Below the pieces are notes generated by a model. It did no database searches, had not been told where the DNA came from, and was given only the letters and a program-made list of their open reading frames with translations. The translations under genes were made by a program, and so were the position numbers. A stretch of DNA of 11,363 bases from a virus (lineage: Duplodnaviria; Heunggongvirae; Uroviricota; Caudoviricetes): IMG/VR virus record IMGVR_UViG_2740892322_000008. One strand, given 5' to 3'. Shown in pieces: positions 1,509-2,279 of the stretch (its first letter is position 1; the number at the start of each line of letters is the position of its first letter).

Positions 1509-1748
1509 CTATTTCCTGCGCATGTCACGTAACTTCTTAATGTGTTCTGCCGTTTCGATCTCTTCTGCTATCCGATCTGCATCAGCTTTATTCACAGGTT
1601 CAAAGTCATGATTAAAGCGGAACATGCTGGCGATACATGTTCTGCCTTTTCGGATGTAGTGAACTTTGTTGTGGGTAGAACGCAGGATTTTGCAGGGAGT
1701 GCCGTGGTGGTCGACGTACCAGGTGTTAGGGTCAATCACTCTGAACAT
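1509..1748 (-). CDS. Hypothetical small phage protein (79 aa)
   Basis: ORF co-oriented with the early-left operon; its start overlaps the 3' end of the upstream ASCH-like gene by 17 nt. No recognisable catalytic motif; possibly a DUF4222-type prophage protein, unverified. Confidence 0.55.
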   Translation of the reverse strand: MFRVIDPNTWYVDHHGTPCKILRSTHNKVHYIRKGRTCIASMFRFNHDFEPVNKADADRIAEEIETAEHIKKLRDMRRK

Positions 1749-2058
1749 TCTTGACCTTGTGTTGTGCGGATTGATATTCAGTGCTGATATTCACCTTTAT
1801 AGCGAACACCTTTACCGGTTTATCGCCAAAGTGCGGATGTGTGATTGTCTTCACTTCATATCCGTCATACGGAACATCAATTCTGCGACTGGAATCGTCG
1901 CGCTTCGGATATCCCTTTGTGATAATCAGGCGGTCATATTCCCGGAACATAATTCGCTTATTCCAGTAGTCATTACACAAGCGATACTCTTCCGTTTTCT
2001 CTCCGCGAATCATGGCATCGAAGTATTCACTTTTAACAGCAAGTTGCAGGTTAGCCAT
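1732..2058 (-). CDS. ASCH-domain (PUA-like) protein, about 108 aa
   Basis: N-terminal LAVKSEYFDAMIRGEKTEEYRL matches the ASCH GxKxxExR signature. ATG at 2058..2056 overlaps the stop of the upstream TraR-like gene as TGATG. The ORF track's extra N-terminal residue comes from a GTG one codon upstream. Confidence 0.65.
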   Translation of the reverse strand: MANLQLAVKSEYFDAMIRGEKTEEYRLCNDYWNKRIMFREYDRLIITKGYPKRDDSSRRIDVPYDGYEVKTITHPHFGDKPVKVFAIKVNISTEYQSAQHKVKNVQSD

Positions 2059-2279
2059 CACTTAATCCCCCTTTGTTTGCGGATAAGCTCCAGATCTTGC
2101 TGGCAACTGGCGCAAGTCCGACAACCCTGAACGGCCAGGCGTCTTCGTTCATCTATCGGATCGCCACACTCACAACAATGAGTGGCAGATACAGCCAGGT
2201 AGTTCAGGCGGCGCATTTTTATTGCTGTGTTGCGCTGTAATTCTTCTATTTCTGATGCTGAATCAATGATGTCTGCCAT
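2058..2279 (-). CDS. TraR/DksA-family C4 zinc-finger protein (73 aa)
   Basis: Two CxxC pairs (CCECG ... CRTCASC) separated by about 17 residues, in a 73-aa protein, as in phage/conjugative TraR-like proteins; a common early-region gene in enterobacterial prophages. Confidence 0.75.
   Translation of the reverse strand: MADIIDSASEIEELQRNTAIKMRRLNYLAVSATHCCECGDPIDERRRLAVQGCRTCASCQQDLELIRKQRGIK

Follow-up and report, generated by a model that had tools for sequence, protein, structure and literature searches.

We analysed a stretch of 11,363 nucleotides from a virus of the class Caudoviricetes (IMG/VR record IMGVR_UViG_2740892322_000008), called the window below, and three overlapping genes on its minus strand at positions 1509-2279. 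In the direction of transcription, they encode a TraR/DksA-family zinc finger protein of 73 residues, a predicted ASCH-fold protein of 108 residues and a DUF4222 protein of 79 residues. A reading of the sequence alone (the first-pass annotation) had described them as a separately acquired cassette of tightly overlapping genes. The three open reading frames (ORFs) were found at exactly the coordinates it gave, and both overlaps are exact. Base 2058 is common to the stop codon TGA of the first gene (2060-2058) and the ATG of the second (2058-2056), which gives the sequence TGATG, and the 3' end of the second gene overlaps the third by 17 nucleotides (1732-1748). All three are real genes, because each has a family match (zf-dskA_traR and phrog_54 for the first, phrog_625 at 2.5e-51 for the second, DUF4222 and phrog_285 for the third) and each is under purifying selection, with a ratio of nonsynonymous to synonymous substitution rates (dN/dS) of 0.13-0.38 against diverged homologs. 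The antisense ORFs on the plus strand (1666-2130, 1542-1754 and 1781-1969) gave no Pfam match and were taken as spurious for that reason, and Rfam detected no RNA family at gathering thresholds anywhere in the window.

The protein encoded by the first gene is identical to lambda Orf73 at 66 of 73 residues (90% amino acid identity), the lambda counterpart being an unannotated 73-residue ORF at 30392-30613. At the DNA level, identity with lambda is about 97% from orf61 through a predicted terminator hairpin (t2) to the end of orf73. The homology stops exactly at the orf73 stop codon, where the next gene is ea22 in lambda and the ASCH gene in the window. By identity and synteny, we assign this gene as the ortholog of lambda orf73. 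Since it lies in the conserved order orf60a-orf63-orf61-t2-orf73, the proposal of a separately acquired three-gene module could not be upheld. The lambda region (orf60a-orf63-orf61-orf73-ea22-ea8.5-orf55) occupies the same operon position between exo and xis, but after orf73 it carries ea22, ea8.5 and orf55, whereas the window carries the ASCH and DUF4222 genes, and the int and xis genes of the window are of phage-21 type (icd site).

The TraR-like call of the first-pass annotation is correct, as zf-dskA_traR (PF01258) scores 36 bits against a cutoff of 24.9, in addition to the match with lambda Orf73. TIGR02419 scores 55.1 bits, slightly below its cutoff of 59.7, and the protein matches the TraR structures 5w1s and 6n57. 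Against diverged homologs, dN/dS of orf73 is 0.24-0.26. The features shared with lambda Orf73 include the C4 finger CxxC-17-CxxC (C35-C-E-C38, 17 residues, C56-A-S-C59), the DxxDxA tip (M-A-D3-I-I-D6-S-A8), the two extra cysteines of the lambda protein and an arginine pair. In the HMMER alignment, DERRRL of the query lies on EARRKI of TraR (5w1s), which makes this pair equivalent to TraR R48/R49, the arginines that contact the rim helices and beta' Si3 of RNA polymerase (RNAP).

The DxxDxA motif of the TraR family reaches the RNAP active site (PMC9239242). Lambda Orf73 binds the secondary channel of RNAP, inhibits rRNA and ribosomal protein promoters with no need for ppGpp, slows host growth and increases phage yield 3-4 fold (PMC9239242). 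Because of the 90% identity, it is reasonable to expect the same mechanism for Orf73 of the window. By homology, it would bind the secondary channel without DNA through its DxxDxA tip, C4 zinc globule and C-terminal helix, shut down rRNA and ribosomal protein promoters, slow the host and raise phage yield.

The second gene is more divergent. Its product scores 14.3 bits with Pfam ASCH (PF04266), over residues 7-29 only, which is below the gathering score of 21.2, so the earlier ASCH call stands on fold and motif and not on the Pfam score. An AlphaFold2 model from 51 homologs has a predicted local distance difference test (pLDDT) value of 83.9, and the beta-barrel of the ASCH fold is present in the modelled 108-residue protein. 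The octapeptide GxKxx[E/T/S]xR, as defined in a recent preprint (10.64898/2026.02.27.708502), is found as G19-E-K21-T-E-E24-Y-R26, at the same positions as the catalytic residues K21/T24/R26 of YqfB (PMC6972931). In the 51 close relatives, and equally in 130 diverse ones with 37-55% identity, conservation of G19, K21, E24 and R26 reaches at least 90%. Among the 130, ten reach PF04266 (E <= 0.01) and four match DUF3850. A profile search of 1.84 billion representatives returned 1353 clusters (at 50% identity) of phrog_625 ASCH proteins.

When solved structures were searched with the ASCH sequence, no ASCH structure was found, and an alignment profile of its homologs gave only spurious matches to beta-xylosidase and L15. 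The same sequence search with the DUF4222 protein gave no match. For this reason, the folds of both proteins were assigned from predicted structures. NCBIfam had no match for either protein, and a literature search on ASCH in prophages found no functional study of the phrog_625 subfamily. On the basis of the model and the motif, we accept the 108-residue protein as a divergent GKER-type ASCH-fold subfamily (phrog_625). Known ASCH domain proteins include the N4-acetylcytidine (ac4C) amidohydrolase YqfB of E. coli, GKER-type proteins such as 2DP9 of T. thermophilus, EOLA1 and TRIP4, and the RNase ZmASCH. The window protein differs from them in its sub-threshold Pfam score, in an identity of only about 12-20% to those of solved structure, and in belonging to a phage-specific subfamily. 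GKER-type ASCH proteins are reported to remove ac4C from tRNA via a Lys/Glu dyad (preprint 10.64898/2026.02.27.708502). With its GxKxxExR Lys/Glu site on a PUA-like beta-barrel, the window protein might bind or hydrolyse modified cytidine or RNA, and by analogy its most likely role would be to act on modified cytidine or RNA, e.g. as an ac4C amidohydrolase.

The third gene had been called uncharacterised, which is true of this particular protein but not of its family. By its sequence, the 79-residue product is clearly a member of DUF4222 (PF13973), the RgdR family, with 68.5 bits over residues 4-53 against a cutoff of 27, and RgdR itself scores 82 bits. The AlphaFold2 model (pLDDT 87.4) contains a small five-strand barrel, predicted to be Tudor/SH3-like (residues 10-52), followed by a long C-terminal helix (54-78). 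In enterohaemorrhagic Escherichia coli (EHEC), RgdR (ECs1581) activates LEE1 as well as type III secretion while repressing motility, and it binds DNA regardless of sequence. It is the only studied DUF4222 member, and the effects on LEE1, type III secretion and motility were shown only for ECs1581 and C1493. We took RgdR from the Sakai genome, where it lies in prophage Sp7/OI-51 of EHEC O157:H7, and found 24% identity to the window protein. Both are small basic prophage proteins with the same Pfam domain and share the conserved core G16, Y31, R33, C38, F45 and F49. However, the 16-residue N-terminal extension of RgdR is missing from the window protein, and so is the RGD tripeptide, which has been linked to activation of type III secretion in RgdR variants. 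RGD occurs nowhere in the 79 residues, and R20-G-D of RgdR aligns with the P7-N-T region. The settings differ as well, RgdR being encoded beside the primase of a P4-like element and the window protein in a lambdoid exo-xis context. Judged by analogy, the DUF4222 protein, with its predicted barrel and basic C-terminal helix, most likely modulates the expression of host genes pleiotropically and would do so without sequence specificity.

A DUF4222 homolog with 37% identity is also present in the xis-proximal part of the exo-xis region of phi24B (HM208303, 1647-1883) and other phages converting their hosts to Shiga toxin (Stx) production, and therefore the RgdR family appears to be a recurrent occupant of the xis-proximal slot in EHEC phages. 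In the RefSeq annotation of phage 1H12, only 117 nucleotides of the DUF4222 gene are called; DNA alignment ruled out a truncated gene, as the intact gene of 79 codons is present (3210-3450). Judged from the DNA, the short call is an artefact of annotation, which conceals the gene in several 'Lambda_ev' phage records. Directly after the DUF4222 stop codon of the window, a long AT-rich imperfect inverted repeat (1463-1501) has its T-run on the plus strand. It is kept with the phage-21 xis module in 1H12 and absent where DUF4222 joins other int/xis types.

We then mapped by tblastn the neighbours of each gene in its 80 closest IMG/VR loci. A few E. coli lineages dominate these best-hit samples, and the counts are descriptive rather than numbers of independent events. 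The upstream side of orf73 holds orf61, orf63, orf60a and exo (orf61 in 78 of 80 loci), and its downstream neighbour is ASCH in 28 of 75 loci, ea22 in 17 and another gene in 30. About 25 ASCH loci have orf73 upstream and DUF4222 downstream. At least five unrelated upstream neighbours were also found for ASCH (a 306-residue Ea22/DUF550-type protein, a 134-residue protein, a zinc-ribbon protein and others), and the other downstream neighbours are lambda orf55-like or other genes. For DUF4222, 14 loci include ASCH, while in about 64, which have no ASCH, orf73 comes immediately upstream across a 50-nucleotide spacer. At 70-91% identity, each of the three genes has different neighbours. More distant relatives include a Salmonella prophage with TraR-DUF4222 and without ASCH, Citrobacter and E. 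coli prophages with NinX-DUF4222-DUF551, Salmonella ASCH genes that adjoin dATP/dGTP pyrophosphohydrolase or Ea22, and ASCH genes of other Enterobacteriaceae near a GmrSD_N protein. This assortment matches the picture of Donaldson, in which a conserved block orf60a-orf63-orf61-orf73(-ea22) is followed by a variable gene set.

In 50,697 phage records, the ASCH subfamily was found in 332 (including Salmonella, Stx, phiV10, P1-like, Ralstonia, Klebsiella, Vibrio and Brucella phages) and DUF4222 in 116, while the whole 1300-2500 stretch with the contiguous trio was found in 4. Some part of 1509-2279 occurs in 3621 of 5426 complete E. coli genomes, and at least 80% of it is contiguous in 593 of them (11%). 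The trio thus does exist beyond this genome, the point on which the first-pass annotation had proposed to check its cassette, but no instance falls below 97% identity with the window, and all represent one near-identical lineage. Co-occurrence across diverged lineages, beyond that of neighbouring genes, was not found. The breaks in homology fall at gene boundaries: one at the orf73 stop codon, and another, read from the DNA alignment of the window with L099 and 1H12, near the DUF4222 start (Table 1). A fusion of orf73 and DUF4222 (PF01258 plus PF13973) was seen in P0207, a 167-residue protein on one contig of 1.8 kb with the arrangement that omits ASCH. We rejected it as evidence of a functional link, since a single short contig makes a read-through or frameshifted gene call probable.

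Positions 1300-2500 are 100% identical in DNA to Escherichia phages ev207 and PhiR63_2 and 97.8% identical to phage 21. The gene order int-xis-DUF4222-ASCH-TraR-small ORF-orf61-orf63-orf60a-exo is shared with phage 21 (OL657228; M61865) and the Jouyvirus phages ev207 and PhiR63_2, at 97.8-100% DNA identity. In E. coli SK1144, the identical stretch adjoins icd, the phage 21 attachment site. All three genes are already annotated in phage 21, as CPT_21_36 to CPT_21_38; the locus is thus already known, its sequence and annotation being available from a classical lambdoid phage.

Taken together, it is very probable that the locus belongs to a phage-21-type lambdoid prophage at icd and forms the distal (xis-proximal) end of its early-left operon, known as the exo-xis or b-region, and that 1509-2279 is the junction of three independently assorting mosaic segments rather than a functional cassette; we hold these two statements jointly. 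The ASCH and DUF4222 genes would then fill the variable slot that ea22, ea8.5 and orf55 hold in lambda, and the gene overlaps would be of the kind that is usual where phage early genes, joined at gene boundaries, are compacted and translationally coupled.

Table 1. Features at and around the three genes, with positions counted from the first letter of the window
Feature	Position	Strand	Remarks
orf73 ortholog (TraR/DksA-family C4 zinc finger, 73 aa)	2058-2279	-	assigned as last gene of the lambda-conserved exo-xis block
Divergent ASCH-fold gene (predicted)	1732-2058 from ATG (108 aa) or 1732-2061 from GTG (109 aa)	-	very probably an independent mosaic segment of ~330 bp
DUF4222 (RgdR family) gene, 79 aa	1509-1748	-	Pfam and predicted fold
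Mosaic junction 1	2056-2061	-	lambda homology stops at the orf73 stop codon; DNA alignment
Mosaic junction 2	1728-1750	-	in variants without ASCH, homology restarts ~7 codons into DUF4222; DNA alignment
Predicted intrinsic terminator t2 (hairpin and U-tract)	2329-2357	-	terminator scan, RNA fold, identity with lambda
Small ORF across the t2 hairpin	2286-2381	-	31 aa from ATG 2381, 29 aa from ATG 2375
Long form of lambda orf61, 93 aa	2378-2659	-	lambda alignment; phrog_303
orf63 (DUF1382)	2670-2861	-	Pfam; annotation of phage ev207 and phage 21
orf60a (DUF1317)	2834-3022	-	Pfam; annotation of phage ev207 and phage 21
exo	3013-3693	-	Pfam; annotation of phage ev207 and phage 21; bet and gam come next
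xis	1133-1369	-	Pfam Exc; phrog_629; downstream end of the operon
int, phage-21 type	1-1143	-	annotation in phage 21, ev207 and E. coli SK1144 beside icd

The terminator was also reconsidered. The first-pass annotation had placed it at 2332-2356; the terminator scan gave a hairpin at 2357-2339 followed by U6, with an RNA fold of -11.1 kcal/mol (z = -2.0), in agreement with that call. The hairpin is identical base for base in lambda, phage 21 and 1H12, and it is the predicted terminator t2 of lambda and phi24B, its sequence being the one given for t2 by Bloch et al. (2014, PMC4195576). An overlapping promoter p1 was predicted in the same study, and lambda mRNA was lower downstream of t2. A literature search for a classical name of the hairpin, such as tL3, gave only irrelevant papers. 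The supposed role of the terminator in separating the three genes from the lambda-like block did not hold, because lambda homology runs on to the orf73 stop codon. On this alignment, the hairpin is internal to the lambda-homologous block rather than marking its edge, and the block includes orf73.

The gene upstream of the hairpin had been labelled ea8.5. We ruled this out, since the 93-residue ORF gave no match to Pfam Lambda_ea8_5, for which lambda Ea8.5 as a control matched at 1.1e-48, and it aligns to lambda orf61 and the reading frame downstream of it. The mislabel was probably caused by the length of 93 residues that both proteins share. In lambda, one extra A in an A-run splits the frame into orf61 (61 residues) and a 60-residue ORF, while the frame is uninterrupted in the window prophage, phage 21 and 1H12. 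A longer ancestral gene may therefore have given rise, by a frameshift, to orf61 of the lambda reference.

A small ORF (MNMKSKIIRELQAPFLLFAFTLKRINQQFRD, 29 or 31 residues) begins on the orf61 stop codon and runs through the t2 hairpin. It has no Pfam match, is annotated as a coding sequence of 90 nucleotides in phage 21 (CPT_21_39) and 1H12, and is possibly the 31-residue ORF 'orf2313' known from ribosome profiling of lambda (PMC8614690). Its translation across the hairpin could modulate termination.

Outside the exo-xis region, the window differs from phage 21 and ev207 in its Rac-like immunity and replication region, with an S24/LexA-type repressor (5655-6410), a YdaS-like gene (6449-6679) and a YdaT-domain gene (6749-7288). 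In the region 4777-6410, no N, cIII, ea10, ral or sieB gene was found between a kil-like ORF (4853-5143) and the repressor. With no N antiterminator gene in the window, the question arises whether transcription reads through t2 into orf73-ASCH-DUF4222-xis-int. Another difference from phage 21 and ev207 is a large inverse-autotransporter (intimin/invasin-like) gene on the plus strand directly after the replication gene P (9252-11363), which runs off the end of the window and is 3.9 kb in E. coli SK1144. It contains IAT_beta (1.5e-101), Invasin_D3 and Big_1 domains and looks like adhesin cargo (a moron) of the prophage. At this position, ev207 has ren and nin genes.

Other explanations of the locus were also considered. 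The frequent adjacency of orf73 and DUF4222 could mean that they form a functional pair, both modulating RNAP, the first from its secondary channel and the second as a Tudor-like binder of its lobe, and that ASCH came to lie between them at a later point. We regard this as unlikely: neither RgdR itself nor several of its relatives have a TraR neighbour, and because of this a shared operon position is the simpler explanation of the adjacency.

Rather than lytic early genes, the ASCH and DUF4222 genes might be moron-like genes for lysogenic conversion, which the repressed prophage would express to alter the physiology of its host. The effects of RgdR on type III secretion and motility give a precedent, prediction places a sigma-70 promoter p1 upstream of orf73, overlapping t2, and in phi24B H2O2 leads to strong expression of orf73/ea22 (PMC4195576); moreover, as the window has no N gene, the genes after t2 would profit from a promoter of their own. 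However, the overlapping genes leave no room for a promoter between them, the -10 element of p1 is substituted in the window (TTTTATTGT vs TTTTATTAT), and our scan found no promoter-like site at the predicted p1. The low identity to RgdR and the absent RGD motif weigh against the precedent too, and we consider this explanation improbable.

The weakest alternative is a co-selected host-takeover or anti-defence module, coupled and co-inherited, with TraR acting on RNAP, ASCH on RNA or modified nucleotides and the 79-residue protein as partner: the tight overlaps, the contiguous trio in 11% of complete E. coli genomes as well as in phage 21, ev207 and PhiR63_2, and the plausible contact of all three proteins with transcription or RNA speak for it, but it is largely refuted by the assortment data and very improbable, given a mosaic junction at each gene boundary, ASCH mostly without orf73 or DUF4222 (332 phage records vs 4 with the trio), orf73-DUF4222 without ASCH as the commonest arrangement for close DUF4222 genes, ea22 or another gene after orf73 in 47 of 75 loci, trio instances from one lineage only, and no match to any defence-system model of PADLOC-DB at E <= 0.1 for any of four proteins. 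The first-pass annotation was right to caution that no specific system can be diagnosed here.

As a discovery, the locus has little weight, being a published exo-xis region whose lead gene is, by homology, an ortholog of the experimentally characterised lambda Orf73. Reading it as a mosaic junction corrects two labels, ea8.5 to orf61 and the separating terminator to a conserved t2 hairpin in the lambda block, and places joints of lambdoid mosaicism concretely at the orf73 stop codon and the DUF4222 start. It also flags, with reasonably confident fold assignments, two widespread families of small phage proteins, the phrog_625 ASCH proteins with an intact Lys/Glu site and DUF4222/RgdR. We give only a small chance to the idea that these two proteins are host-takeover effectors complementing Orf73, namely an ac4C eraser and a Tudor-like binder of the RNAP beta lobe. 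If so, the eraser could target, for example, the wobble base of host elongator tRNA-Met or free ac4C, and docking of DUF4222 on the beta lobe would account for the pleiotropy of RgdR with no need for it to recognise particular DNA sequences. In that case, transcription and translation alike would be reprogrammed from the xis-proximal end of the operon.

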